Positions 254-57,621 of a DNA stretch of 64,000 nt are shown piece by piece; the first letter of the stretch is position 1, and every line of letters begins with the position of its first letter. Below the pieces are notes generated by a model. That model did not search any database and was not told the DNA's origin. It saw only the letters and a list, made by a program, of their open reading frames with translations. The translations under genes and the position numbers were made by a program. The DNA comes from Kondoa subrosea. Its lineage: Eukaryota. Location: positions 4,129,347 to 4,193,346 of the forward strand of contig BCIN01000001.1 of assembly GCA_039545335.1 (NCBI GenBank), read 5' to 3'.

Positions 254-621
254 AGCTTGCTCCTAGCTTATCCTCAAGCAGACTGGGTATAATGCTGTGC
301 TGGATCTAGCCCTATGACTGTTGCAAATCAACCGATGTTGCTTTTCTACGTCGACAGCGCTTGGAAGAGAGATCTCGCTCTTGGAAGTCTGTGATATACT
401 CTGAGTACACGCTTATACCACATCCATCTTGGCTTGTATAACGTGGACCCGAATCTATCCTTTGTCAAATACTGGAGCGCTCTTTCTTTTGAGCTCTGTT
501 GGACCTGCCTCGCTCTGGCTGTGCTCGGTGTCTGATTGCTCTCTGTTGATCATTGGTGAGCTGTTCTATGTCTGAGCCATTGCTGTTGCAATCTCATTGC
601 CTTGTCGTCTTGTCATACAGT

Positions 622-3600
622 ATGGCAGCTGAAGATGAACTCTCACCCAGAGCAACTGCATCGCCTTTACCATCTATCTCTGGGAAAGATCAGAGAAGTC
701 TAACTGGCTTTCTTCAGCGTCTGACTACTTCCGGCCGAACTCGCTCATCATCAACATTGGGCCATGGGCATCCAGAGAACGCACAAGAACGGCTTCAATC
801 CATCTTGAACAGCGCTCCAGCTGGGAGAAGACATTCCGCTTCTTCGGATTTATCCAAGAACGTTCTCGCTGCTGCTTCAAGATCGGTTTCTGGTTTATCT
901 AGTCATTCGCTCGATGCTGCTTACGATACGAAACCTCAAGATGCAATCTCTTTAGACAATGTTTTTCAATCTCTTCAGACTAGTATCAACGAGAAGAGTT
1001 CAGCTTCAAGGAAGATCGAGTTGATCCATCTTTTGAATGAAGCCGTTCGAACACAAGATGAAGGCAATCCAGTCACCATCTGGGTTACTGTTTCTGATCT
1101 CATTAGCGCTTCTGAACCAATCGACGTACGTTTGGCTGCTTTGCAACTACTCGCAACCTGTATCAAAGTATCTCAAGATGCGCCTGCACCTAAATCTGGC
1201 GATCGAATAGTCTTTTATCAAGCCATTAGCAATTATGGAGTGGACTTGAAACAAATGACAGATGTAGAATTGGAAACACTCTGTAAAGCTTTGTTCGAAC
1301 TGTGCAAAGGAGGGAGAAACGTGCATGGATTGGACGATGTGCTGGAATTGCTGTGCAAATGGTCTGGCGAACTCTTCAAGCGGAGACAATTGAAGAGAGA
1401 TCGGATCAAAGAGCATTTCTACAATCAGCCTGCTGGTGTTGGCAAAAAGATGGCCCCTTTGCAAGATCCTTCTTTCAAAACTCCCTTTGTCGTTTCGCCT
1501 ACACCTCTCGAGGTAGAAGAACGAGGCGCTGGCACAAGTTCTCTTTCTCTTATTACCAATATACATAAATTCTCTTGGCCTTACCTCAATGCCGAATCTA
1601 TTTCTTTCGCTACTGCTTACCTCATCGCAGAAGGTTTGGCGACATCGAACGAGCAAGTTGTGTTACTTGTCTTGGAACACATTGACTCCCTAACGGCTTA
1701 CGGCTATGTTCAAACCTCCTATACTGAAAGTGTCGTCCATCTAGTAGCAAGAGTAGTTTCGATCGAAGGTCGAACTTCCGCTATTCAGCTTACCGATGCT
1801 CTCAACAACCCAACTGAACCTTATCTTCGTCCATCTTTACCTGATCTCCCACAAAAAGCAAGACAAGTAATGCATAACCTTCTTCGCTCACCTAACAATC
1901 AAGCACTTCGTTATCTTCGAGCAGCTACTGTTCCACCTTCTAAAAACGATTCAGCAGATATTCAAATCGTTTCTGGTTCCCTTCGTTGTTTAAGACAAGC
2001 TTTGATTGACTATCGACCTGGATCAAGTGGTTCAGATTGGGCTGCCTCTGAATCTTTTCATGCAATGTTATCAATGGGCATCTCTTTCCTTCATGCAAAT
2101 TTGGTAGAAGCTCTGGAATGGGATGCACCAGAAGTAGGTGAAGAAGTTTTAGGAATCCTTTTGGATCGAATAAAGTGGCATCAGGAATCGAAACCTTTGG
2201 CTATGAAGAGCGGCGCAAATACTCCTGCTAGCAAAGATGGTCATGTTGCAACACATGATACTCTGAATGGTGTAAACAAGAGATTAGAGGAGAATGAAAG
2301 TGAAGGCTGGATTGGGTATGACGAGTGGGATATGATCTTGGGTTTGGTCGAGAAATCGCTAAAGTTCTTGTGGACCACGGATGAAGATGCTGTGTCTTGG
2401 TCATTGAATGTCAGCGGAAACGGTAGGTCAATTCTTTTCATCGCTTGCCCCTTCGCTAACAATTTGTTGCAGAGGAGGACACGAACTCAAACTCTTTGCC
2501 ATCGGTATTACTAGCCCTTCAGCAAGTTTTGTCAGCTATAGTTACTGTATACAAAGCTGGCACCTTCTCTGGTCCGCTCGATCGATTCTTTCCTCTTCTC
2601 GCATTACTCGAAACCAATCTATCCGACCTGTCAGCTGTTGCACTCTTGGACTGCTATCACTCAGAAAGCGTCTGTATGCCTTCTAATCCCGATTGGCTCA
2701 CGGATCTGAACGATGTCGCTTCCGCTTTTCTTACTCCTGCACGATCACAGCGACCGAGACCAATAGCCAAGACTCGCGCCATTCAACTTCTAGCAGAAAC
2801 ATACCAGGCAGTGCAAGACTTTGCAGAATATCGAGATGCATTGCTGCAACAAGTCATTCTACCTCTTATCGACAAACTTTTAAATGCTGCCGAGTTCGAT
2901 ATGTCTTCCGCTCCCCAGCTAGTATTGCTCATCAACGATATTATCCGCGACGCTTTATGTACGAATGATGCTCAAGACTCTGGTAACAAGCAGAGCGCGT
3001 GGACTATACATTCGCTGCAGAAAGCTCTCATAGGTCTGGCTTTGACGAAGCCTGCCGCCAGGAAGAACTCGCTACCAAAATCTAATCTTCGTTCTTCCAG
3101 TATACCTACTTCCAAGACAATGCAGCCTCTGTCTGCCGTCTCAAGTACATCTACGCCGAGTAGTGCAACGAACGGTAGATTCAAACTTCCCGCCTACACC
3201 GTCTTGGAACCAGATGCAAGTACCTTTGCAATATCAGCTCTACTCGGCATATTTGGCATGGCTGTTGATGTTGGTTCTCGGTCTTCAGCACTTCACGCTG
3301 TTCAGCTGTTCCGCGATATTCTTGCACTCCTTTCACCTCCCGATGATGAATCAAGTCCATTGTCTCGATTAGCAAGATTTACTATCCTGCAGTGGTATGT
3401 TCGACTAAGAGCTACGCCAAATCATCGAATATACATCGAAAGGGATGTCGACATTTCCGATATTTCTTCTGGACTAAGCAGACCTGGCGCCGTTGCAGAA
3501 GCTACGGAAATCGAAGCGCATCGCCTCGCTGATTCAATTCACCAAGACGAGGCAAATGATAGGAAAAGAGGTCGCACACCAAGACAGTCAGCTGCTTCGC

Positions 3601-6252
3601 CTGACCGGTCTGGACGCTCTTCGCGCAGTGGCAGTCGAACCGGAAGAGCTGCAGAACGAGTCCACATGGCTGAAGAAATCGATACAAATAGCTTGCTTTG
3701 GTGCATTCCTGAATTGCCGGTCTTTAATATGGCAGAAAAAATTGGCGGCCGAGCTGATGGCTTGATCTCTTTTGATCACAATATTAGATGGGAAGAGTCA
3801 GACAACATCAGTGCCGATGAGTCATCAGCCTCAGCTTTCCCTTACTACGACTTAGCCCTAGCAGCTCGCGACGGCAATGCCCCGATCATCCTTCCGGTAT
3901 CAGAATACTTTCAAGTCCTGTTGCGTATCCTTCGAAATACGACAGACTGGGAGATTGCTTCTTATATTCTCTGTCATTTGCCTTTGCAACTCTCTTGCAA
4001 GCATTTCACAGCAGGTCCTCGAGCATCAAGGGAAATCCACGTGCTACGCAAGTTTCTCTGCGAAGGTCTGATACGAGGCAGAGTAGTCGAAAAGCTTCGA
4101 TTGCCGAATAACATCAAACTCGACACCGTTTCTGCCCTTTCTTACCAAACACTCGTCACTCTCATTGCTTACAAAAGTCTCTTTACGAAGTCGCAGCAAG
4201 ATGAAATGGTGGCCACCTTCTGTCATGGCCTGAATCAAAGAGATCTGGCTAAACCTTGCGTGCATGCTCTGACAATTGCCTGTCACGAGATGCCAGCTTC
4301 AACCATGAAGTACATGACGCAATCTCTGCGCAATCTACATAAAGTCATGTCAACTGCTTCCATGGCTGTTCATATCCTCGAGCTTATCGCTTCTGTCGGA
4401 CTAATTCCGGCTCTCTATTCAAACTTTACAGAAACGGATTACTCTGCCGTCTTTGGCATAGCTCTACAGTACATCAGTATTCACAATCAAAATCTTATAG
4501 CAAACAAGCTACCTTCGCCTGATGCAGATCCGGCTGACAAAAAGGAAGATTTGACTTTCGCCTTTTCTCAATATGTTTTTCACTTGGCATTTTATGTCAT
4601 CGATCTTTGGTATATGTCGCTCAAACAAGGTCAACGGCGCCAGTACGTTCCTTTTATCACTAACAAATTGGTGCAAGCCTGTGAAGCCCGCGGGTCACTC
4701 GATGAGCCCAGTGAAGTTTGCCTTGATATGATTGCGCGTTATGCCTACTCAAACATTGATCCTCGACCTCGCAAATCACCTCTTCGCGATCTATTGCAAA
4801 GAGGATCAGGCAAAAGCAGTAAATCTCTGGTTTCTCCTGATGCCCGCAAATCTTGGGTGACAGGCCACTCTATTGTTACGATTACTCTTCTATCTATTGG
4901 CGGCTGGGCTGACATCACGATTCGAAGACCATCAGGAGTTGTCCAAATGGTAATCGAAATCGAAAACTCGCTCAATCCAGGAGGTTTTGCGCACGAAGAC
5001 CTGTTGCACATGCTCATTCAGCGCCGCGATGCCAATCAAAACGATTGGAAGTACTTGGCAAACCAACCAGCACCTAGACATCCTGTCCCAGGCGATCCAG
5101 TTTCTGCAGGAAGCAAGCGATCGCGCGCAAATAGCTTCAGCAATTTTGGCTCTCAAGCAGTTGATGCTTCACTTCGAGCTTCTTCTCAGCTACAGAAACC
5201 CCTTACTTCTTCCATCAGGGCTGTTGCTGGTCAAGCTCCAGATGGACCGCCAAGTGACGCCGAAACCATGGCATTGAACCAAGCCGTCAAACCCAGCTTC
5301 TTCGCTTTGCAATTTTCTTCCCTGCCTGAATTTGGCGAACATGGACCTCCTATACCTATTCCAGACGAGTCAGCATATCAGCGAGCAATCTCTGGCATGG
5401 ATTCGATTCCAGTGCTCGACTTTCACAAGATTGGTGTACTTTACGTCGGTACCGAGGATCATACAGAGCAAGATATACTGGCGAATGCGCACGGCTCAAA
5501 GGAGTATGTCAAGTTCCTCTCAGGTCTCGGTCAACTAGTGGAACTAGCAGACAACAATGATTTCTATGTTGGCGGTCTCGATACAGACAATGATGTCGAC
5601 GGTCGCTGGGCTTACATTTGGTTCAACAACGTATCTCAAATTGTCTATCACGTGGCTACTCTCATGCCGACGGATCTTCAAGCGGATCCTCAATGTACAT
5701 TGAAGAAACGTCACATTGGCAATGACTTCACCAAGATCATCTACAACGATTCCGGTCGTCCTTTTGACCAAGATACATTGCCTGGTCAATTCAACTTTGT
5801 CAATATCGTTATTGAGCCGCAGACTCCAGCAGGCAAAGCCTGGACTGCGTCAGGCATGAAGGGGAACATGGGTTTCTTCAAGGTCTCGATGCAAAGAAGA
5901 AGAGACATGCCTGAAATCGGACCGCTTGGTGTATTCAAAATGGTTTCCGCTGCCTCTTTACCTCAAGTTGTTAGACATTTGGCTTTACACGCAAATGTCT
6001 TTGCTCTAGGTGAGACCGCTTCCAGTCCTCCTTGAGAAAATGCTAATTTTCCTTGAAGTCTTTCTCGAATCTGTCGGTGTGGAAGGCAGCTCAAGCAAAA
6101 GACAGAGATCTGAGTTCATTTCCAATTGGAGGCATCGATTAGCAGCAATAAAGAAACTCAAAGCTCGATTAGTAGCTGATGGCAAGGTACCTCCCAAAGT
6201 TGACGAAGAGGGCAAAGGCTTAAGCGGATTCAACTTTACTACTTGGACTTGA
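622..6252 (+). CDS. TSC2: Tuberin (TSC2) homologue with C-terminal Rap/Rheb-GAP domain
   Basis: ORFs 553-2514, 2496-6035 and 6010-6252 join via two short introns (~2423-2472, ~6010-6056). GAP motifs FHKIGVLYVG, FHVATLMP-like YHVATLMPT, KKRHIGND and GQFNFVNIVI, plus IRRPSG. A 5'UTR intron (556-620) precedes ATG 622. Confidence 0.93.
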
Positions 6253-22843: not shown

Positions 22844-24032
22844 TGGCCTACGAGTGAGTTCTCGCTAGCTTTACTTCTGCAGACGTCTTATGCTTCGTAG
22901 AAATTTCCTGTGACCTAAAGAGACACTTGCTGGCGTAATCTAGGCCTTTACTGGACACTAGCCAAAGTTGTCTTGCAGTACGTCTCCCTCGCATATAAAG
23001 TCCTGTAACGCTGCGTGACTGACGATACTCTCAGTGTATCTGTTCCCTATACCAGTCCTCCATGTGCCAGCTTCTGTGAAGCCGCTGTCGGTCAATGAAC
23101 GTACTACTATAATGCATCAAGATCAGCTATGAGCTACACACCATTCTCGTTTCTGACGATCTTCAGCTCTATAACCTTCTCTATCATATTGCCGCAAGCT
23201 GGGAATATATCTCTCAGTTCCAAGCTGAAAGCAACCATGCATATCAGCGACAAATGCAAATCGCGAAGAGAAATCAGCTCGAAATAAATCATCTCTCGAT
23301 TGTGTCATCATTCTCAAAGTCATCTGAACTGCTATTCACACTGCTTCCACATGTTAATGACGCGTATTCCTTGAATTTACACGTTATTACGCGTCGAATT
23401 TTAAATCTTATTCTCGCCATCTATCTTCCTCGTCGCCAGCCAGTCCTAAGCACGACGTGGTTCTTGACGGTGTTGTGGTCCCTGTGTGGCGTCGATCGAA
23501 TAAAATCTCAGCTTTCTTTCTTTCCTCTCTTTTCCTTTCTCATCGTCTCATACCCATTTACCCTTCGAGACGAGCATGTGATGGCGCCGATCTGCCAAAT
23601 AGGAGCGAAGCTACGGACTTGACTGTTAACTCTCTTGACTGTCGGTTCCATCACATGTGATTATACCTTTTTGTGCAAATACCTTGGACTGAAGTCTTGT
23701 TTCAACAAGTGCTTGTCCTGTAAATAGTTGTTCGGTATGATTGGTTCAAGATTGGAGGGTCAAGCGAAGGAGTACTTTGGTTGGTCAGCTAGGAGGTGGA
23801 GCATGGGTCGGATTGGGGAGAATTTGGGATTAGTGGGATCGGGCAAATTTTGGGAAGTTGAGGATTTCTTTCACTCCGTAAGCTCAATATTGTTTCAGTT
23901 TGCATGCATCGGACAGCTCATACATCCTCTTCTAGGCAACATTTTTCAGTGGATGGATATAAGCACTACTCTGGCTCCCCCTCTTCGCGACTGTTCACGG
24001 AACACGTTCTTTCTTCTGATGAGTGGCCTAAG
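22672..24032. repeat. Partner copy of the duplicated segment (CMC4 exon 2 + Y + X)
   Basis: Reverse-complement identity to 13320-14570 and 14585-15108. Confidence 0.9.
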
Positions 24033-24537
24033 ATCGAATTGATGTCTGCTAGGCTACAAGAAATTTGAGGCAAGGTGACAGGGACAAGCGCTGCAAGGGG
24101 AAAGCATCAGCAACATACAGATACAGGGATCTGAATGCGTGGTCAGTGTGTCTGCTTTTCGGTCTCAGTATCAATCAGCTCATCCGCTATTCTACAGAAC
24201 AAGGACCTCATAAGAAGCAAGAAGGGATTTCGACCAGAGTAGTATATTGTGTTTCAACGTTTTTGGCTACAAAATGGCATGGCATACTTAGTATTCAGGA
24301 TCTGTATTGCAAAGTAGAAGCGGAATTCTGTCCTAACATCGGATTCTGCTAGTACTCTGCTAGTCTTAAGAGTCCGGATCTACTTCACATCGGCGATCTC
24401 CGAATTCAACCCGCCCTTACACTTCTCACTCGCAAATGCATTCACTTAGTGACGCTATACTTGGGCCGCAGAAGGAGTGCACATTGCTTGTCATGTCACA
24501 GACACTATTCCCGCAGATCTGGGCACGGCGCGGTGTC

Positions 24538-24547
24538 TATATAAAAG
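24538..24547 (+). promoter_or_regulatory. TATA box of the microexon gene
   Basis: TATATAAAAG 165 bp upstream of ATG 24703, followed by a CT-rich tract (24620-24680). Confidence 0.6.
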
Positions 24548-24702
24548 AATATTGTTTTGCTAAGGGAAAGTGACTCTCTCATGCAAAGCCGGGTAGAACA
24601 GCCACCGCAACCGTGCTGCTTCTGTTTCCTCGTCTCCTCTCTTCTCTCTTTTCTCGTCTACATTCGCCTTGACTTTTCTCACATCGAATAACTTACCTGA
24701 CA

Positions 24703-27173
24703 ATGACTTCTATCGTCCATTCACTCGAAAGTACTCAGGGCTCTCAGCCTATTATCTCTTCGCGTCGCACTTATTACGGTAAACTCTCAACGAAACGTAA
24801 GCATACAAACTTTATCTATCTTCAGCTACTTCTGATCCCTTTGGACAGGCCAGGAAAAACGCTTCGAGTCCGATCAGAACAACAACAAGAATAACGCCAC
24901 CGCTGAGAACACCAGTGAGTTGTCCGTCACTGGAGGTAGCAGCAACAACAACAACAACAACAACAACAGCAGCAGCAATGACTTGGGAGACAAGAGTCAG
25001 TTGCACTGTTTTGCATTTTGAGCTCTCGCTAACGTTTCCATTTGATAGGTTATGGCGAAGAATGTTCGGTTGTCTTATCTTATAAGTATGTCTATAGGCT
25101 GACTTGCAGGATAGTCAATCTTTCTGGTGTTTCTCAAGAAGATGATGATCAGTCTGCAAAGACTGATGAATGTGCGTTCCTTGCTTCGCTGTGATGCTCA
25201 AAAGCTGACTCATCTATAGTTTTTAACAACCTCTTTGGTGAGAGATTTTACTTCGCGCATTTGCCCTTATCTGATTACATCTCATCAGATGGCTCCACTC
25301 TCGAAATGACTAGTTCAGCTGCTTCAGTTGATGGTGAGTTTCGCTTTATTGTTCGCTTTCGTGGTCTCATGCCTTTTAACTTCCAGCTGCTACTGCTGCT
25401 TCTTTCCCCAATATCGGTGCAACTGGTGAAGACGATGATTTCGATGCAGGTAAGCTACTCTCTCTATGGTTCGCCGCCATTGTAGCTTATGCCTCCTCTT
25501 GCTTTAGCTGCTGCTACTACTAGTATGTCGCTACTTTTTGCGATCTCTTTATGTACTGATGGCTGCCTCGTTATCTCTAGCTGGTCCTGGTGTCCCTCCT
25601 GGTGCCACTAGTCTAGGTAAGTAATCTGCCTTGGCAGACTTCTTTGGTGTCTGACTTCCATACGTTGTAGCTCCTTCTTCTTCTTCAGAGAAAGTGTATA
25701 ACAGCGATTATGACTCCTCCACTGATGATGGTGAGTGAACTTCTTCTGTTTATATTCTAAGACACTGATCGAGTTGTTGACAGAGGATTTTGGTGAGACT
25801 CTCACAGTAGGATAGATGCTTTTGCTGATAAATATCCAGGCGCACACAATTCTACACGATTTGGTGTTTCTTATTACGCTGAGCCTATGAAGGCTTCCGG
25901 CGAAGGAGGTCGGTCTCTTTTCAGAACAGCTGAAGCATTCGCTCATTTCTTGCCGATCTTCAGATGATGCTGGTAAGGTCTAAAGGTCTACACTCTTTAC
26001 GCTGTCTGAATATTTCGGACAGGCGCACTGGCTAAAGATGTCATCCCTCATGACTCAGCTAACGATATTCATGAGTTGCGCAAAAGTGTGGACAAGATGC
26101 TTGAGTACGTTCATCTGCTGCTCCAATGTTGACGATAAGCTTATGGTCTCTGAAGCATTTCTGAAATCGCCAATGATCCAGAAGGTAGGCAATCCCTTGA
26201 TCTCGAAAACGATTCTAATGTGCCTCTTCACGAACACGAAGATCCGGTTCTTGATTTGACTAATGATGAAGGCATGTTAGTTGCTCGTGATGTTGATGAT
26301 GCGGTTATGGGTGAGTGCAAATCTTCTACCGAAGTATCGTCTTCTTCCTCATACACTGCCCAGCAGATGGACGAACCATATTCAATTACGATCAGCAGAA
26401 TAACGTCAATTCTTTCAACTCGGTTTCAGAAGAGGAACAAGAAGAAGCAGAAGTTAGTACTGCCGCACGTTCTAATGCAGAGGACTCCGACCCTGTCATT
26501 TCTCTTGGCGAGGACGAAATCTGTACGTTGCCTGTGTCTGGTCAAATCAAGTCTGATGACGGAGCTTAGTCGTTGCACTACCTGAAAGATATGCCTATTG
26601 GAGGGCTGTTACCTTCAGTTATAAAGTAGAATTCATTCGTACGTAATTTGCTTCCAGATATACTGAATGGCGGTCCTCAACCTGCTATGTGCTGTCTACA
26701 GCATTACCGAATAACACTGGCCACCCGTTCTTTAATCAAGCTGAACTCAACGCTCTTCCGCTTGGAGCTGTGAAACCAATCACGGAAGCTGAAGCAGAAC
26801 GTCGACATTTTTCGAATCCTGCAGTCTGGATTCGATCTTGTTCATGCTTGCTTGATGGGGAACCTGAATTCTACTGGGGCATCATCAGTCAGTTTCTACC
26901 TTCCGTGATATGTCTCGCAGCTTAAAGTCATTACAGTCGATCCCAACGATCCCGAAGAGAGTAAGTGAGCTCAATCTGCTTCATTACAAGCCAAATCTAG
27001 CCTATCAGAACGGGAAGCAAAGGAAGAAGAGAGAATGGGTCATAATGCTGATGCTCATTACTGGGATAGTAAGTTGCAGCTCTTCTTTCTGGATCCCTTG
27101 CTAATCGAGTCTGCAAGATCACTTTCCAGTTTGCCCTGGTGTGATTGCTATGCGAAAGCTCCGGGGAGTCTGA
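24703..27173 (+). CDS. Orphan acidic, largely disordered protein (~471 aa) encoded by 21 exons, mostly symmetric phase-1 exons
   Basis: Exons 24703-24778, 24849-24995, 25049-25063, 25115-25171, 25220-25237, 25289-25333, 25387-25449, 25508-25522, 25581-25616, 25671-25730, 25784-25792, 25840-25908, 25964-25972, 26023-26104, 26156-26310, 26367-26522, 26570-26638, 26702-26887, 26928-26960, 27009-27068 and 27118-27173, all GT..AG flanked, join into one stop-free 1416-nt frame. Confidence 0.72.
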
Positions 27174-27313
27174 TCTGGAATTCTATGTCGTTCGAGCTCA
27201 AGGACTCTTGCTCTCTTTGTATTGGATCTGCATAGTATTGATTGGTTATTTGATAATATTAGCATCTCTCGTTTTCGGTATGACATTTTCTTGCTCTTGA
27301 CCACGACTTGCGA

Positions 27314-28824
27314 ATGGCAGCAAAAGTGAAAAGATCTGCTCCTTCGATTTCTACTACCGACCATGCAAGCAAGAAGCAAAAGCTAGCAGCTGAGCCTGTT
27401 TCCAAGGGCAAAGAAAAAGCAGTGGAAGAGCAGTCAGAACCAGTTTATGATTCATTTCAGTTAGTAGCAGGATCATATGAACGAATTCTGTATGGTTTAG
27501 AAGGTCGCTTTGCTACGAGCACGTCTACCATAAACTTGAAGCCAATCTTTTCATTTCCTGCACATTTATCATGCATCAAGACTTTAGCTGCTTCTTCAGG
27601 TGGAAACGCAAAGAAAAGTTGGTTAGCTACTGCTTCTACAGATGAGAATATCAAGATTTGGTCTTTACATAGAAGGAAAGAGATGGGTTCTTTAATGGCT
27701 CATGAAGGTGCTGTGACTTGTATGCGAGCAGTAGGCCAAGATGGGAAATATTTGGTTACTGCTTCATCGGATGAAACGCTTCAATTACTTAGAACGAAAG
27801 ATTGGTCGGTTTTGAGAAGCTTTAAAGGTCATAAAGGAAGAGTGAACGATGTTGCTGTGCACCCGAAAGGAAGGATAGCTTTAAGTGTTGGTCAGGATCG
27901 CACATTGAGAATGTGGGATTTGCTTGGTAGCTCTGGTCAGGCAGCTGGAGGTGGAAAGCAAGGTTCAAGCAGTACGAAGCTAGGAGCGGGTGAGCCCATT
28001 TGCTCCTCAGACGCGGGAATGGAGCTGATTATCGACTTATTGACTTCAGAGGGTGATCTCGTGCGATGGAACAGCAAAGGCGATCTCTTCGTTGTGATAT
28101 GCGACCGAGAACTCAGATTGTACAAGACTGTAAGCGAGCCTTTTTTTTGACTGAGAGGCATCTCTGATTCCATTTACAGGATATGACTGTTCTTACTACC
28201 CTCGAATCAAAATTCCGCTTCCACGATGTTCATTTCTTTCAGGTTGAAGGCGTATCGGAAGAATTGATGTGCGTTGCTTGCGAAGATGGGAAAGGACGAA
28301 TCTACGCTATTCCAGCTGAAGCACCTACTTCGGAGTCTCCGTTAAAATGCGTAGCGGAATTAGTAGGGCACTCAAAACGGTTCGTTCTTCTCCTCTACTA
28401 GGTATTTGGACACTGATGATTGCGCAGAATCAAATCCATTCAGTCCCTACTTCTCTCTTCAGCGGATGACAATGCCCAACGTATGATCAGTACTATCTCA
28501 TCAGACGGCTTCATCCATCTATACAACCTATCTACATCTTCTAAAGCTATTGCATCGAATCCAGAAACGCCTGTTCAAGTAGAACCGATAACGAAACATG
28601 ATACTAAAGGATCTAGGCTGATTTGTCTTGCTACTGTTGGCTTCAAGAAAGGACAAGAAAGTGCGGTCGAGGTAGAGGAAGAGAGTGGGAGCGAGTCAGG
28701 TTCAGATGTCAGCGGAAGTGGAGAAGAAGAGGATAGCGATAATGAGGCATCAGAAGAGGAGGAGGATGTCGAGCAAGAAGCAGATGCGATAGAAGGAGAA
28801 GAATGGGGAGGTATTGGCGAATAA
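27314..28824 (+). CDS. MAK11: WD40 60S biogenesis factor Mak11/PAK1IP1
   Basis: VAGSYERILYG, FSFPAHLSCIK, GHKGRVNDVAVHPKGRIALSVGQDRTLRMWDL, GHSKRIKS and an acidic tail. Confidence 0.9.
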
Positions 28825-28875
28825 ATGCTATCATCTTCATAATTCGCTTGTATGACGCTTGCTTTCGAACCAATT

Positions 28876-50129: not shown

Positions 50130-50780
50130 ATAACACCACTACAGCTGAGAGCGTGAAGAAGAAAGAGAAAATCGCTTTAAGTTTATGATAGGACATGCGA
50201 GAACAGCCTATTTGTACATGAAGCTAACTGATTCTAATGATGCAGAGCCGAACCACAACGGCAGTCCGCTGAACAAGAAATCAGCCTATGAAAAAGCAGA
50301 CAATGGGAAGAGACAAACTTCTGGCTTCTTGATGATGTTCTGAAACTGTATGACAAGCAGCTTTGATTGTCATCGTTCTTTTGTGTTCGTCTATGAGTAT
50401 AACATTGATGGGCTGATGACCAGCAGCCGTTCCGGCAGCCCCAGCGGTGACATAGTATGAATTTCGAAACATCTGTTCTCTTGTATTGTATATACGCGTA
50501 GCTGTCCACCCTTCAGGAGATACAGCTTGAGAAAAGCTATTTGTAGATTTGCGTAGAGGTCTGATCCAAATCTCGTTGTTACTGCCCAAACAGTAGACGA
50601 AATGCGGAATGCAGGCGAGTCGTTGAGCAGCCTATAAGGTAGACAGGATATGAGAAGATCGCTTTCTGACTGAGCACGACACGTACGAATCCTTCCCAGC
50701 CTGATTGTTCGTACTCAACCGCCTGTTTATGGCTTGCAAGAGCGATGTTTAAGCTATAGGGGTGGAAAGACATATGGAGA
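50130..50780 (-). CDS. Possible small multi-exon hypothetical gene
   Basis: ORF pieces 50281-50589 and 50579-50866 with plausible GT/AG sites. No recognisable motif. Confidence 0.25.
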
Positions 50781-50976
50781 AAATAGGTAGCAGAGGTTCT
50801 GACTATAAATAAGAGCAAGGAAGACGGTCGACCAGAAAGACAAGAGAGAGAGAGAGACAAGACCATCCGGACTTATCAAATTCGGGCGATACAAACCTCG
50901 CCGAATGCTTTCCCGTGGATATACAGGCAATGAAGGCAACAGTCATTCAAGCAAAGAACAGATACATGACAGTCGT

Positions 50977-52550
50977 TTACATTTGCTTTACAAAGCTGCT
51001 TACAAATGTCATCAAGATATTTCTCTTCTGGCAAAAGAAGAGCTTACGTAGCATCTATCTGACTGACTTGCGGCAACAGATCAATCAATTTTCTCCTATA
51101 TGTAGTCCCTAACGATTTCTGCAAAGGGTTACCTTCGAGGTAGACCGTTTCTAGATTCTTCAAGCCAGGTAATTGCGAAGCGACTTCAGGTAACGAATCT
51201 AGAAGATTGTTGTTCGCCTGTCAAGCAATCATTCTCACAAAATCAGCTCAGTAGACTTTGAAGTATAGATTCCTGACCCAGAACTCCTCTAATTCGGAAA
51301 GGTGGGAAATGTTTTCCAACTTGTTGATTTTGTTCGCTCCTAGATCAAGCACTCGTAGTTTCTTCTGTCAGATCAGATGGAGATCAAAAGTTATCAGCAC
51401 ATGCTGAGAGCTACTTCCCGTCCGACTGACCAGATTATCTAGACCTGATAGCGATTCAAGCCCGTTATGGCTGAGATAGATCTCTTCCAGATTGGTAAGA
51501 TCGTCCAGATTCTCAATCTTTGTTATTCGATTGCTCTGGATAAGAAGAAGGGCGTAAGATTCTGATCATACGAAAGGAAGAAGCTTTACCTGCAGACTTA
51601 GGATTTTGAGGTTCTTCAAAGTACTCAGATTTTCAAGTTTCGTTATCTTGTTCTTTCCTAACCAAAGTTCCGTCAAATTAACCAGCTTGTCCAGATTCTC
51701 GATCGTCTGTCAAGATGTTCTACAAGTTAGCTAATATCATAGCAAACCGTAGCACCATACTGACCCGGATCTTGTTCCCGCCAAGCTCTAGACTCGTCAA
51801 TGTAGCAGCTAGACCATCTAAATGAGCTATCCTCGATATCTTGTTCTGAATCAAATAAAGTGTAGAGAGGGAAGTTAAAGAATTGAAGAGTTGTTCAGGT
51901 ATATGTTTGATGAGGTTGAAAGAGAAGTCCAGTGTTCTGTATTCTTTTCGATAAGTATGAGTGCTATTACAAGTATGTGAAATGATGTACTTCAGATGAG
52001 ATAAGCCTTGTAGACCTTGGATTCGATCAATCTTGTTATCATAGAAATCAAGATCTTCCAGCAGAGAAAGTTCCTCCAATGGTGCATGAGATGTTTGGCC
52101 ATCTTCTGCTTCCACTAGGAGGGATGAAATGAAATTCTGTCGTAGGCATATTTTCTGTCTTTCCCGTTAGCTCATTGAAGAGGAAAGAGAGTAAGCATAC
52201 CTTCACTGTTGGTGCAAAACGAGACAACTCTAGCCCTTTGAGTGTCTTTATACGAGAATGCGTCAACTCGAGTTCCTACGTAATTTGGTCAGCATGCATG
52301 AAGTCACTCATAGACACATGAGAACAGACATCTGCTGCATCAGGCACATCAGCAAGCAGATCTATCACAGCGCACGCAGCATCAGACAGAGATGCTGGAA
52401 GTAAAGGACTCTATGCAAACCAGATTGCTCTAATTCAGTAGTTTCTTCATTTCCATCTGCCTCTTGCTGCTTGATTCGCTTCTGATCCTCGAAAGCTCTC
52501 TCATCCAGTGTCGGTCCAGCATTGATCTCTTCATCCGACGAGTCTGACAT
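50977..52550 (-). CDS. SDS22: Protein phosphatase 1 regulatory subunit Sds22 (LRR)
   Basis: ELELTHSRI, DLDFYDNKI, LDFSFNLIK, LYLIQNKI, LELGGNKIR, LWLGKNKI, IYLSHNG, VYLEGNPLQ and QIDAT. Confidence 0.92.
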
Positions 52551-52597: not shown

Positions 52598-55161
52598 ATG
52601 GCCACACCTCACAGGAGAATACCCAGGACCTCACTGAGTACCCGTGAATCTCATCTGGAGCCTAATTCATCTACCTTGAATCTCTCACCTGTCTTCAGAG
52701 GTTCTAAACGATTTCTCACCTTACGCAAGTCTTCGGCTCCTGAACCTGGTGCTTCACGTAGTAACTATTCTCAGCATCCCAATGTTTCATTTTCCCCTTT
52801 ACCTTCTATACGTCGACCAAATGGTCATGCGAATCCAAATGGAAATGACAGCGAGATGCAAAATCAGGATGAGACTCAGGTAGAAGAAGAAGAGGAGGAA
52901 GAAGAAGAGGAGACGATCATTGATAGGCTCAGATTATCGAGAAACGATGCTATGCAACAACACCTTTATTCGACGGCTAGCTTTTGGGGTAGCAAAGCTT
53001 ATGAAATAACTCGTTTGTTTTCAATCTCTTGCATCAGTGCAATATCAGTCCCTGAAAAGGGTATTCAGGCGACCCAAATGATGCTTTCTGGTTAGCTCAA
53101 ATATATTTCTTAACCCATCAACACGCTCGTGCGGAAAAGATTCTCTCTACACCAAAAGCTGAACCTACTTTCCGTTCAACCAACTCAAAAGGAAAACAAC
53201 CAGAAACGAATGGCTATCATTCTTCTTCAGATCCACCATCTTCTGCTCCTCTTGTTCGCTTAACAGACATTTCTATCGCTTGTCGTTATCTAGCTGCTCA
53301 ATGTATGGTCAGACAAAACAAATGGAGTGAAGCTTTAGATCTATTAGGCGAATCTAATCCTTTCTCAACAACATCAACAAAATCGAAGCAGGATAAATCA
53401 GGTCCAAATACTAAACCTTTTGATGGTGGGATAAAATTCGAAGCTTCCATGTGTCATTTAAGAGGATTGATACATCTTCATATGAATTCTACTCAAAAAG
53501 CAAAAGAATGTTTTCTTGAAGCTTTAAGTTTGGATGTAAAGTGTTATGAAAGTTTCGAAGCTTTGGTTGATGGGAATATGCTTGTTGTGGATGAAGAATG
53601 GGAGTTCATACAAGGGTTGAAATACTCGGAACAACAGAATGAAGAAGATGCAGAGTTCATTAGGATGGCTTATACTGTCAGACTGAAAAAGGTTCGTCCA
53701 ATTGCATACACTAGCTATTACAAGCTTAGCTGTGTTATTTCAATGGACAGTACAAGAATCACAACGAATCTGCGCAATGTCGAAAGAAGCTGATAGATCA
53801 ATATGGCCTTTCAGAAGATCCAGATGTACTATTTGGACTAGCAGACGAACTCTTTACCGGTCTAAGATGGAAAGACTGCTACGCTATCACTTCTTCTATT
53901 CTCACTCTACACGAAGGTCATGCTCCAACCTTACCTATACACCTCGCTTGCATGTATCAATTACCTTCACTTCATTCTGGGTTATTTCTTCTTGCGCATG
54001 AACTGGTAGAGCGAGCACCGGATATGGCTATAAGTTGGTACGCTGTTGGTCTGTGGTATTACGCAAGTAAACGTTGGGACGAATCGCGGCGTTATTTCGG
54101 GTGCGGGATATCTGCCTATTTGCTGTGGATCAGCTAAGAGGCCAAAATTGCACAGGAAAGCAGTACTACTTGATCCTAGATTTGGACCAGCTTGGGTAGC
54201 TTTTGCTCATGCTTACGCGCTCGAAGGCGAACATGAACAATCAATCACAGCCTATTCTACCGCCCAAAGGCATTTTCAAGGGTGAGCTTCAGCTTTGATC
54301 AGGTCACGGCGTCATTTGATGGATGAAACAGAACACATCTTCCATTGCTCTTCATTGGAATGCAACACCTTCAGCTAAACAATTACGCCATTTCTCGAGA
54401 ACACCTGAATGCTGCTTGGGCAATGTGTCAGGTCGATCCTTTGTTGGCAAATGAGATGGGTGTAGCAGCTTATTGGGCTGAAGAGTGAGTCCGCATGAGA
54501 TTCAGCAGCATGAGTAGTTAATTTTCTGTTGCTGACTGACAGACATGAAGACGCGATCAAGTATTTCAGGATAGCTCTTGATCTGGTGCAGAATATACAA
54601 GGTTCCAAATCTTCTTGGACGAATACGTACATCAATCTGGGTCATGCTTTACGCAAAACACAGTTGGTTCAGTCTCCTTTCATCGCCTGCAATGCACTAA
54701 TTTGTCCATGATAGTAAATGGGAAGAGGCTCAAGAAGCTTTCGAAACAGCAATCGACCTCAATCCGGAAGCTGCAGCGGCACATTTAGGCTTAGGCTATG
54801 TTCTGAGCGCATCCGGTCAGAGAGAAGCCGCTATCGAGCGAATACATGAAGTAGGTCTGTTCCTGCGTCGTCAATGCTGAAGGCTGATCTCTGGTAGGGC
54901 CTTTCTCGTTCACCTGCCGATCCACTGGGCGCCGAACTCCTTCGAACAGCAATAGAAGATTCAGCTTCGCATATTAGATATTCAGCTGCAGGCGGCACGA
55001 TGTCTTTCCCAGGTCTGAATCCCGAAATAGCAGCTGCTTTCGACAGAGAAGCGGCTGAAGAAGATCTAGCAGCTATGGCTATTGGGACATCTTTAGGCAG
55101 ACAAGGGGAATTAAGCATGTCTTTGGAGCAGAGCGAAGACATATCAATGGATTTCGCTTGA
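52598..55161 (+). CDS. CDC16: APC/C TPR subunit Cdc16/Cut9 (APC6)
   Basis: DAMQQHLYSTASFWGSK, DAFWLAQ, DGGIKFEASMCHLRG, EALSLDVKCYESF, ISWYAVG, FGPAWVAFAHAYALEGEHEQ and NLGHALRK. Confidence 0.93.
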
Positions 55162-55513: not shown

Positions 55514-57621
55514 ATGCTGTCTGCTCGAGTTTCCCGCTTCCCCTCTGTTTCGGTGCGAAGTGCTGTCAAGACACTTGCTGCACGCTCTCTTTTCCGCCGT
55601 AACATCTCGGCTACTGGCTCTCAATATGATAGCCTTATGGGATTCAATAAACTGAACAAGATTCCAGATTGGAGGAATAAGCAAGTCAGCATGAAGGCAT
55701 TGCGTATGCGCAAACAATCTGCTCTAGCAAATTTCTTGTTCGCTTAAATACATGCTCTTTCATTGCAATAGTTGAAGACTTCCGCAATCTTCAAAGTCTG
55801 GAAACAGCTGTTGCAAGTGGTAGCAGCAAACAGAGCGTCGCTAGTCTTGAGTATAGAGTGAGTATATCGACTGGACGTCGTGCGCTGAGATATTGACTAG
55901 CTTGTCCTCAGAATGCCGAAAGGCAGATCTACCAATTGGGCATTGGACAAGGCGCAGAAGATTCTGTTCCGTAAGCATAATACTTTACAACATACAGAGT
56001 AGTATTGATCCCTGCCATTAGATTAAAGGCACTAGCAGATATACTTCCACCCGACAATTCACTCACCTGGCGAACGATCCGCGAAAGAGCTTTCGAAAAG
56101 GCAGTTCAGCGTCTTGAAGGCTTAGACAAGCATACTCGTAGCGTAGTCGAGTTCAAGTAAGTCAGCTCTGTTTAAATTGTATATCGATGTGATCGAGTGT
56201 GCAGTCGATGCTATGCAATTGGTCCAACTTATGCTGAGAAATTCGCTAATGCTGGAGCAAATACAAAGAAGGACCTTTTAGCTGAGATGGAGATGCCAGA
56301 AGACAAGCGCAGGTTCAAGCTGACCAAAGCACAAGTACTCGGAGTTACGTATGCTGTACGTCGCTTCCTGACGTTTCATATCTCCGACGGACCAATAATA
56401 CAGGAAGACATCGAGAAACTAATCCCTCGAGCGTAAGCCAGATCATTTGCTCTGCTGGATTCGACTCATACTTGCTCTTCAGTGAAAGTGACAAATGGCG
56501 TGATGTTCTTCTCAAAGCTGCTAAAGATGCAGATTCCAAGTTTGAAGGCGAGATCCTTGGTTCTTACCGTCGAGGCAACGCTGTAGCTTCCGGTCAGCAA
56601 TATTCTTCTCGTATTTTGCAATTACTGACTGTGTCCGCCAGATGTGGACTTGATCGTCAGACATCCTGACTTGAAACGTATTTCACTTTTAGTAATGCGC
56701 TTCTGTGTTATCACTCATACTAAACATGAACAGGCGCAACATCAGACGAAGAATTCAGGGAGAAGATGATCCAGATTGTAACTGAGATGGAGAAGAAATG
56801 TGAAGTTCTTGGCGTTCTAGCTGATGGCAAGAAAGTTTTCAGAGGTATACATCGGCGGCAAGTTCACTCATACTAGCTGACCTCATCTGTCATCAGCTTT
56901 GGTCAGATTCCGCAACGATAAGAGCGCTGTTGCCCGTCGTTTGGACATCAGTATTGCTCCAGCTGAAACTTACTACTATAAGCTGCTTGTACGTTGTCTT
57001 TGTCTGTTTGTGTTTGTTCTGACAGACTTGTCAGGGTTCTTCTGGAGATGATGTATGTCATCGATCCAGCTTCGGCGGAACACTATTGACAAAGAACTAT
57101 TGCAGCGTCTAATGAAGATCATGCGTGAAAGAGCCAAAGACCTTGGGTCAGTCTTTCCTCTAATTTTCATATCCTATTACTTATTCCTCATCCACAGCCT
57201 ATTCCTCAACGAAGAAGGACTCGGCAAACGAATTCCTGGTAAAGGTACAGCTTTCATCTTTGATCCTGAAGATTTTCGTCCTGTCAGTTCTGAGAAGTAA
57301 GCAATCGTTACTTAATCTTTCGTTGAAATGAAATGATGAAGGTGCAGGGAAATCTTTGCTATGTAAGCAAGCTGCGAATAAAGTATACGTGAGCTCGAAG
57401 CTGATCCTCAATCTCTGCAGCTTGAAGATGCCTTATGTGAGCATCCTGCTAAAAGAAGAGCTGATGCAAGCCTGATCCGAGTGTACAGCTGGCTCCTACT
57501 GAGAGAAAGTGAGTTTTGTCAGAGGCAATACAAATAGTCCGAGCTGATTCCTTGATTCAGCTATCGTGATTATTCGAAGAAGGTTAATTTCAAAAAGGTG
57601 TACGAAGAAGTTAAAGCCTAG
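55514..57621 (+). CDS. Family X DNA polymerase (Pol beta/lambda-like), no BRCT domain, many introns
   Basis: CYAIGPTYAEKF (HhH), LTKAQVLGVTY, EDIEKLIPR, ILGSYRRGNAVAS|DVDLIV (two catalytic Asp), RRLDI (third Asp), MRERAKDLG|LFLNEEGL and LAPTER. Confidence 0.85.

Follow-up and report, generated by a model that had tools for sequence, protein, structure and literature searches.

The gene examined here lies at positions 24703–27173, on the forward strand, of a 64,000-nucleotide (nt) stretch of Kondoa subrosea DNA (assembly GCA_039545335.1, contig BCIN01000001.1, positions 4,129,347–4,193,346); this whole stretch is referred to below as the window. No long open reading frame (ORF) crosses the region, and its maximum stop-to-stop frame is 143 amino acids (aa). 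The original prediction had resolved it into 21 exons forming one frame of 471 codons, and we reproduced this model exactly, with 20 introns of 40–70 nt, a start ATG at 24703 and a stop codon at 27171–27173. Nineteen of the 20 introns were found to be in phase 1, the sole exception being intron 14 (phase 2), and 17 of the 19 internal exons are frame-symmetric with lengths that are multiples of three. What is special to this gene is a uniform phase combined with 14 introns per kilobase (kb).

The predicted exon sizes, both those of exons 2–13 and those of the later exons of 156, 69, 186, 33 and 60 nt, were confirmed. When exons 2–13 were placed by these sizes with GT..AG introns of 40–140 nt, they fell at 24849–25972; the 10 solutions listed, out of 35, differed solely in the exon-1 donor. 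Exons of at most 36 nt sum to 135 of the 1416 coding nt, and those of at most 81 nt to 690 of 1416. The gene had been said to have its own TATA box, and one was indeed found upstream, with a CT-rich tract between it and the ATG; we take this arrangement to be the typical fungal geometry of core promoter and 5′ untranslated region. The features of the locus are as follows.

24538–24547 (+): TATA box TATATAAAAG, 156 nt 5′ of the ATG
24616–24659 (+): pyrimidine (CT)-rich tract of 44 nt, 91% C+T, with the TATA box upstream and the ATG downstream
24703–27173 (+): whole coding span, ATG to TGA; coding sequence of 1416–1425 nt in 19–21 exons
24703–24778 (+): exon 1, 76 nt, with donor GTAAAC in the 21-exon model; the likelier end is 24796 (94 nt)
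24849–24995 (+): exon 2, 147 nt, containing an (AAC)n poly-Asn tract at 24944–24967
25049–25063 (+): exon 3, micro-exon of 15 nt, with the weakest donor (GTTCGG)
25115–25171 (+): exon 4, 57 nt, phase 1-1
25220–25237 (+): exon 5, micro-exon of 18 nt
25289–25333 (+): exon 6, 45 nt, phase 1-1
25387–25449 (+): exon 7, 63 nt, phase 1-1, bearing an acidic-aromatic motif
25508–25522 (+): exon 8, micro-exon of 15 nt, donor GTATGT
25581–25616 (+): exon 9, 36 nt, phase 1-1
25671–25730 (+): exon 10, 60 nt, phase 1-1
25784–25792 (+): exon 11, micro-exon of 9 nt
25840–25908 (+): exon 12, 69 nt, weak donor GTCGGT
25964–25972 (+): exon 13, micro-exon of 9 nt
26023–26104 (+): exon 14, 82 nt, unique in being preceded by a phase-1 and followed by a phase-2 intron
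26156–26310 (+): exon 15, 155 nt, phase 2 to 1
26361–26366 (+): CAGCAG tandem acceptor of intron 15, a 3-nt in-frame choice
26367–26522 (+): exon 16, 156 nt, donor GTACGT
26570–26638 (+): exon 17, 69 nt, where the hydrophobic/aromatic C-terminal part begins
26702–26887 (+): exon 18, 186 nt, the longest exon and the main query in homology searches
26928–26960 (+): exon 19, 33 nt after a 40-nt intron in the 21-exon model
27009–27068 (+): exon 20, 60 nt
27118–27173 (+): exon 21 with the TGA stop, acceptor AAG

Because GT and AG are frequent and many open threadings are possible, tests independent of the open frame were applied. A codon-usage log-odds score trained on 12 long ORFs elsewhere in the window gave +185.1 bits for the spliced coding sequence in frame, versus -102.3 and -452.4 bits in the other frames. 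The proposed frame scored best in 18 of the 21 exons, the concatenated introns scored negatively in all frames, and the T content was 35% in introns versus 27% in exons. Splice signals were compared with those of 1544 decoy GT..AG pairs of 40–70 nt drawn from long ORFs. A consensus-like donor was present in 16 of the 20 introns (3.9% of decoys), a strict CTRAY branch motif in 11 (7.8%), a loose branch motif in 18 (27%) and a YAG acceptor in 17 (42.5%), while the three signals combined were found in 8 of the 20 introns versus 0.45% of decoys. These are the properties of U2-type fungal spliceosomal introns: a GT donor, a CTRAY-like branch 3–30 nt before YAG, and a length of about 45–70 nt. The intron length was not divisible by three in 13 of 20 cases, and retention would bring an in-frame stop in 11 of 20; read-through was possible for introns 3 and 5 only (51 nt each, without in-frame stop).

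A threader based on dynamic programming, which used generic fungal splice scores set by hand and penalised each intron, and in whose training the gene had no part, gave 196.9 bits on the plus strand, with the ATG and stop identical to those of the original prediction. Sixty dinucleotide-preserving shuffles gave 9.9 ± 4.3 bits (maximum 21.9) with at most 6 introns. Of the 18 introns in its best path, 16 were in phase 1, and introns 3–14 of the 21-exon model (12 of 20) were matched exactly. The gene is thus genuine, as are most of its introns. Three other candidates were rejected. The threader's best minus-strand gene reached 17.7 bits, inside the shuffle range; a non-coding RNA host gene was dismissed, as there was no Rfam match at E ≤ 1 in 24000–27600 and the introns are too short for small nucleolar RNAs; and a fusion that the threader made with the downstream MAK11 gene was an artefact, homologues of the latter beginning at 27314.

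The predicted exon structure is not unique, the 3′ exons and three splice sites being ambiguous. At intron 1 the threader preferred the donor GTAAGC at 24797, which scores above GTAAAC and makes exon 1 94 nt long with phase 1 kept. Two in-frame alternative sites had been pointed out earlier, a GTGAGT donor at 24915 and the CAGCAG acceptor at 26361–26366, and both are present. The former is internal to exon 2 and its use would remove 81 nt; the threader takes it because the poly-Asn codons score poorly. It also skips exon 17 and reroutes exons 16–20, because intron 17 is without a consensus branch motif. Exon 19 has an alternative acceptor at 26936 (49-nt intron, exon start at 26937, 24 nt, in frame), and exon 21 an alternative CAG acceptor at 27129 (start at 27130, in frame). 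Weak donors were seen at introns 3 and 12 and AAG ends at introns 14 and 20, and a restricted enumeration returned 164 open-frame threadings of the last three exons. Among the alternative models, the total ranged from 18 to 20 introns, with 16–19 in phase 1. It was also observed that 26761–26788, inside exon 18, forms a 28-nt inverted repeat (79% complementary) with 26900–26927, the 3′ part of the 40-nt intron 18; this repeat could influence the choice between the acceptors 26927 and 26936.

As a baseline for intron phase, 134 introns of 19 other genes in the window were used, all predicted by the same threader. Their phases 0/1/2 were 51/42/41, giving a phase-1 fraction of 42/134. Measured against this distribution, the bias was far beyond chance, with P(≥19/20) of 3.8e-9 for the 21-exon model and P(≥16/18) of 6.6e-7 for that of the threader. 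The maximum same-phase run in the other genes of the window was 6 introns. The seven introns bridging long ORFs had phases 0/1/2 of 4/2/1, and homologues of MAK11 backed 2 of its 3 predicted introns, the third being ambiguous. Near-uniform phase 1 in this gene is non-random.

In the preferred variant of the model, the protein is 474 aa long, rich in Ser, Glu, Asp, Ala and Asn, with a net charge of -54, of which -49 falls in residues 1–345. As the original prediction had described, an acidic N-terminus is joined to a C-terminus bearing Trp, Cys and His. The N-terminal ∼345 aa are very acidic, have low hydropathy and include five acidic-aromatic motifs, at residues 84, 103, 140, 182 and 340, as well as a basic cluster close to the N-terminus; the C-terminal ∼125 aa are more hydrophobic, hold Trp, Cys and most of the His, and probably fold. 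A hydropathy check agreed that no signal peptide is visible, residues 1–30 having a mean hydropathy of -0.43 and no hydrophobic stretch. Proteins of the acidic histone-binding class carry Asp/Glu runs followed by Phe or Tyr (DEF/Y type) in a disordered acidic region. With low confidence, the composition suggests that this protein may be a nuclear acidic binder of basic proteins, of histone-chaperone type.

Homology searches yielded little. Pfam gave no match for single exons 15–18, a word-based search with exon 18 among longer proteins likewise found none, the ESM Atlas gave no usable match, and the best hit of exon 18 among PDB sequences (E of 0.067) was not significant. Exhaustive phmmer of exon 18 against 1.84 billion representatives returned one match, at E = 1.4e-4, which was judged spurious, being 26 residues summed over the near-identical WD40 repeats of a WD40 protein. 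No paralogue was found within the 64-kb window. Local tblastn of the spliced protein against four metagenome MAK11 loci detected no orthologue (best E of 0.93), and the best of these loci has a different gene upstream. The single-exon searches were weak, as a 61-aa query needs ∼45 bits in such libraries. Because the queries were short and the nearest relatives are distant, the earlier label 'orphan' is not established: no homologue emerged from exon-level searches, but even the nearest named relatives of MAK11 are only 45–50% identical.

The neighbours are ordinary fungal genes (tuberin/TSC2, an SNF2 helicase, a FLILHELTA-family protein, MAK11/PAK1IP1, a RhoGAP, a NuBaID protein and HIS7), and they place the source fungus closest to Basidiomycota; no annotated relative is close, and the fungus's own proteome is absent from the protein collections. 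The gene itself is likewise of fungal type. The MAK11/PAK1IP1 WD40 gene, at 27314–28830 (+), adjoins it downstream, its ATG at 27314 lying 140 nt past the stop. The best named relatives of MAK11 belong to Agaricomycetes and Mixia; only metagenome fragments reached 60–81% identity. A predicted 60-nt in-frame 'intron' of MAK11, at 27990–28049, matches ∼18 residues that the homologues lack; it may be a true intron or an insertion. Two Mycena/Favolaschia homologues of MAK11 (P0023 and P0048) are labelled 'glycosyltransferase family 39 protein' at source, which probably reflects a gene fusion or a transferred annotation error.

Intron density was 14 per kb of coding sequence in the gene, and 3.96 on average elsewhere in the window. 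TSC2, at 568–6252 (+) with the domains DUF3384, Tuberin and Rap_GAP, has ∼2 predicted introns in 5.6 kb of coding sequence (0.36 per kb), and density varies about 40-fold among the genes of the window. The predicted gene at 56287–57621 (+), which by its motifs we take to be DNA polymerase X-like, has 13 exons of 14–110 nt with 12 introns in 603 nt (19.9 per kb), in mixed phases. Elsewhere in the window, 39 of the 153 predicted exons are of at most 36 nt. Micro-exons and dense short introns are therefore a trait of the genome and not special to the gene. Runs of one phase were also observed in two other genes. A predicted LRR gene at 50234–52550 (-), presumably SDS22-like from its repeat sequence, has exons of 75, 372, 135, 87 and 87 nt and 11 introns, among them six consecutive phase-0 ones; and a predicted TPR-like gene at 53952–55161 (+) has five introns, the first four in phase 2.

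We favour, at about even confidence, the reading that the gene is spliced constitutively and that its frame-symmetric exons make splicing errors tolerable. In this view an intron-rich fungus carries the gene in single copy, with a TATA/CT-box promoter of its own driving transcription, and the 18–20 short introns (40–70 nt) are each probably recognised singly; intron definition of this kind has been proposed for fungi (PMC3925392). The main product would be one protein of ∼470 aa. The uniform phase 1 would most likely reflect which introns could persist among chained, very small exons. With exons of 9–69 nt and introns of ∼50 nt, a donor joined to the next-but-one acceptor still gives a normal-sized intron, and where the exons are symmetric such mis-joining would cost a few residues of the disordered region and leave the frame intact. 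The architecture would thus be error-tolerant and would yield at most minor in-frame variants, rather than serve as a regulated generator of diversity.

Several points weigh against this reading. The DNA polymerase X-like gene is intron-dense yet mixed in phase, so that small exons alone evidently do not force a uniform phase, which argues against error tolerance as the full explanation. The exon structure of the C-terminal part is ambiguous, and expression and the exact junctions are predictions from the DNA sequence. The baseline introns are predictions that were checked against homologues for MAK11 only. As to function, the guess draws on composition and a motif class, no family, structure or homologue having been matched.

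Descent of the phase by copying is the first alternative to a constitutively spliced, error-tolerant gene. An exon+intron unit of phase 1-1 would have been serially duplicated in the N-terminal half long ago, in the manner of tropoelastin or of the LRR gene in the window, and have since diverged beyond recognition, its phase being inherited. Other same-phase runs in the window are indeed found in genes for repeat proteins (the six phase-0 introns of the SDS22-like LRR gene and the four phase-2 introns of the TPR gene), the five acidic-aromatic motifs recur along the N-terminus, and human disordered proteins have been reported to be built preferentially from symmetric exons, which often originated in internal tandem duplication (PMC3632108). 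The gene itself retains no sign of this. No tandem repeat with a period >9 nt was detected in it, only triplets and short CT units, and no repeat families were found. The best pair among exon+intron units 2–13 scored 22, compared with 21.0 ± 1.9 for shuffles, and the self-similarity of the N-terminal 345 aa was 42, compared with 36.8 ± 3.5 (maximum 46). Exons that are repeated modules, as in tropoelastin, were likewise not seen, neither DNA nor protein similarity rising above shuffles. Moreover, the exon lengths are irregular (9 to 69 nt), and five further phase-1 introns sit in the non-repetitive C-terminal part. Recent duplication is excluded, and a recent introner burst largely so; an old duplication was considered unlikely, though it deserves some weight.

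A modelling artefact is distinctly unlikely. It would mean that the micro-exon chain is partly over-segmented, with unused micro-exons or coding 'introns', and that the need for an open frame has inflated the count. The frame cannot in fact validate symmetric micro-exons, as dropping exon 3, 5, 8, 11 or 13 keeps it, and the two 51-nt introns free of in-frame stops, the two weak donors, the many threadings of the last three exons and the threader's preference for 18 introns all leave room for such an error. However, despite its per-intron penalty, the threader retained all five micro-exons, with introns 3–14 as in the 21-exon model. A branch-like motif and an acceptor are present in every flanking intron, and at least 16 phase-1 introns were present in all alternative models examined.

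The original prediction had proposed a combinatorial-splicing system that varies an acidic disordered N-terminus attached to a more constant C-terminus. On this reading, regulated exon skipping as in schistosome micro-exon genes or tropoelastin would exploit the uniform phase to make many in-frame isoforms, which would differ in how many acidic motifs the N-terminus carries and in how these are spaced. We regard this as decidedly improbable. In its favour, 17 of the 19 internal exons could be removed without a frameshift, in-frame options exist at 24915, 26361–26366, 27129 and the donors 24779/24797, and the uniform phase demands a cause, which composition and duplication did not supply. Tropoelastin shows, moreover, that all-phase-1 genes can use cassettes (10.1101/2024.12.03.626628). 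In fungi, however, exon skipping is the rarest class: across 23 species, alternative splicing comprised 61% intron retention, 23% alternative 3′ sites, 13% alternative 5′ sites and 3% skipped exons (PMC3925392), and long reads of Coprinopsis put skipping at 0.5% (PMC12230235). Only two of eight alternative sites near the splice sites were in frame, as expected by chance and hence without enrichment. Regulated cassette splicing is therefore a priori unlikely, given the rarity of skipping and these two of eight sites. Introns of ∼50 nt are also expected to be spliced individually, 18 of the 20 donors score well, which leaves few exons that look skippable, and there is no signal peptide, gene family or paralogue in the window.

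A related suggestion, equally improbable, is that the gene parallels, in a fungus, the all-phase-1 cassette genes of animals, its phase being kept by selection for dropping or combining tiny exons in frame. If so, the number and spacing of acidic-aromatic binding motifs would be tuned in a disordered nuclear protein despite intron-definition splicing, under which skipped exons are otherwise nearly unknown, and this would be the first such fungal counterpart of tropoelastin or of the schistosome micro-exon genes.

Composition was raised in the original prediction as a caveat, namely that GNN codons favour phase 1. In its pure form, G-initial Asp, Glu, Ala and Gly codons together with introns that prefer to follow G would by themselves produce the phase. 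G is indeed enriched at codon position 1, which holds 187 of the 319 G's (59%), and it ends 9 of the 20 exons before an intron. The remaining 11 end in A (6), T (3) or C (2), the junction context is AG| in 3/20 and |G in 4/20, and even if G is assumed before all introns, P(≥19/20) is 5e-4. The acidic tail of the neighbouring MAK11, moreover, is confined to one exon, without introns. Composition is not the explanation of the phase bias, and as a sole cause it is very improbable. An introner-like family of mobile introns that preferred to insert in one phase and multiplied inside the gene would suit the very high local intron density, but is scarcely credible, as the gene's introns, with splice signals stripped, were as dissimilar to one another as unrelated ones (mean local score of 11.9 within the gene, 11.7 to 103 others and 11.7 among those others), no repeat families were detected, and the exon junctions share no common target motif.

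Fungal genes normally have introns of mixed phase, while cassette splicing and the shuffling of exons are considered traits of animals. In the open-access literature searched, no description was found of a long chain of same-phase micro-exons in any fungal gene. The observation itself is confirmed and statistically robust, the combinatorial-splicing and 'orphan' readings being unproven. With 16–19 same-phase introns and neither a trace of duplication nor a compositional cause, the gene is a clean natural case, in which it can be asked whether selection acts on phase symmetry, for error tolerance or for in-frame variation, in an intron-definition genome. If splicing is constitutive and the pattern recurs genome-wide, it would be a modest curiosity of an intron-rich lineage. 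The case is also a warning for annotation: such genes escape ORF-based and many ab initio callers, so that they seem to be 'gene deserts' or orphans.

Among known systems, intron-rich basidiomycete genes such as those of Cryptococcus neoformans resemble it in general build, with short introns, many per gene, and very small exons as the norm; for that species 5.7 introns per gene, one gene of 42 introns and exons as short as 1 bp have been reported (PMC3990503). Ordinary intron-rich genes differ from the present one in density and phase, as in the rest of the window, where there are ∼4 introns per kb in mixed phases. The fungal gene Xlr2 of Trichoderma likewise yields a changed protein when its micro-exon is included (PMC11121469), but it has a single regulated micro-exon in a transcription factor, no symmetric chain, and an unrelated sequence.

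In human proteins, disorder has been linked to symmetric exons, the link being strongest for those of the 1-1 type and for symmetric exons in succession (Schad et al. 2013, PMC3632108). That trend is statistical, belongs to an exon-definition genome and was ascribed to shuffling and tandem duplication, whereas the gene described here is fungal, shows no detectable duplication and is far more extreme.

Schistosome micro-exon genes share with it the chains of small, frame-symmetric, multiple-of-3 exons between larger terminal exons, and are described as lineage-restricted and difficult for automatic annotation (10.1101/2023.06.21.545858, PMC4350168). Their introns, however, are of 0.1–5 kb, in contrast to 40–70 nt throughout here, and their products bear signal peptides and are secreted, whereas the N-terminus predicted here is hydrophilic. 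They are also multi-gene, with proven skipping isoforms, while the present gene is single copy in the window and known from DNA only. The likeness to schistosome architecture claimed in the original prediction thus extends to exon symmetry, although exons of at most 36 nt account for just 135 of the 1416 coding nt, and failed for long introns, signal peptide and gene family.

Tropoelastin (ELN) resembles the gene in that all its splice sites are of phase 1:1, its protein is largely disordered and of low complexity, and its exons can be removed in frame in a cassette-like manner (10.1101/2024.12.03.626628). It differs in its long introns and documented alternative splicing, and the present gene has no sequence relation to it and no detectable modules. 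Beside the all-1:1 borders of tropoelastin, 19 of 20 introns in the 21-exon model, or 16 of 18 in that of the threader, are in phase 1, which is close to all of them but not strictly so.

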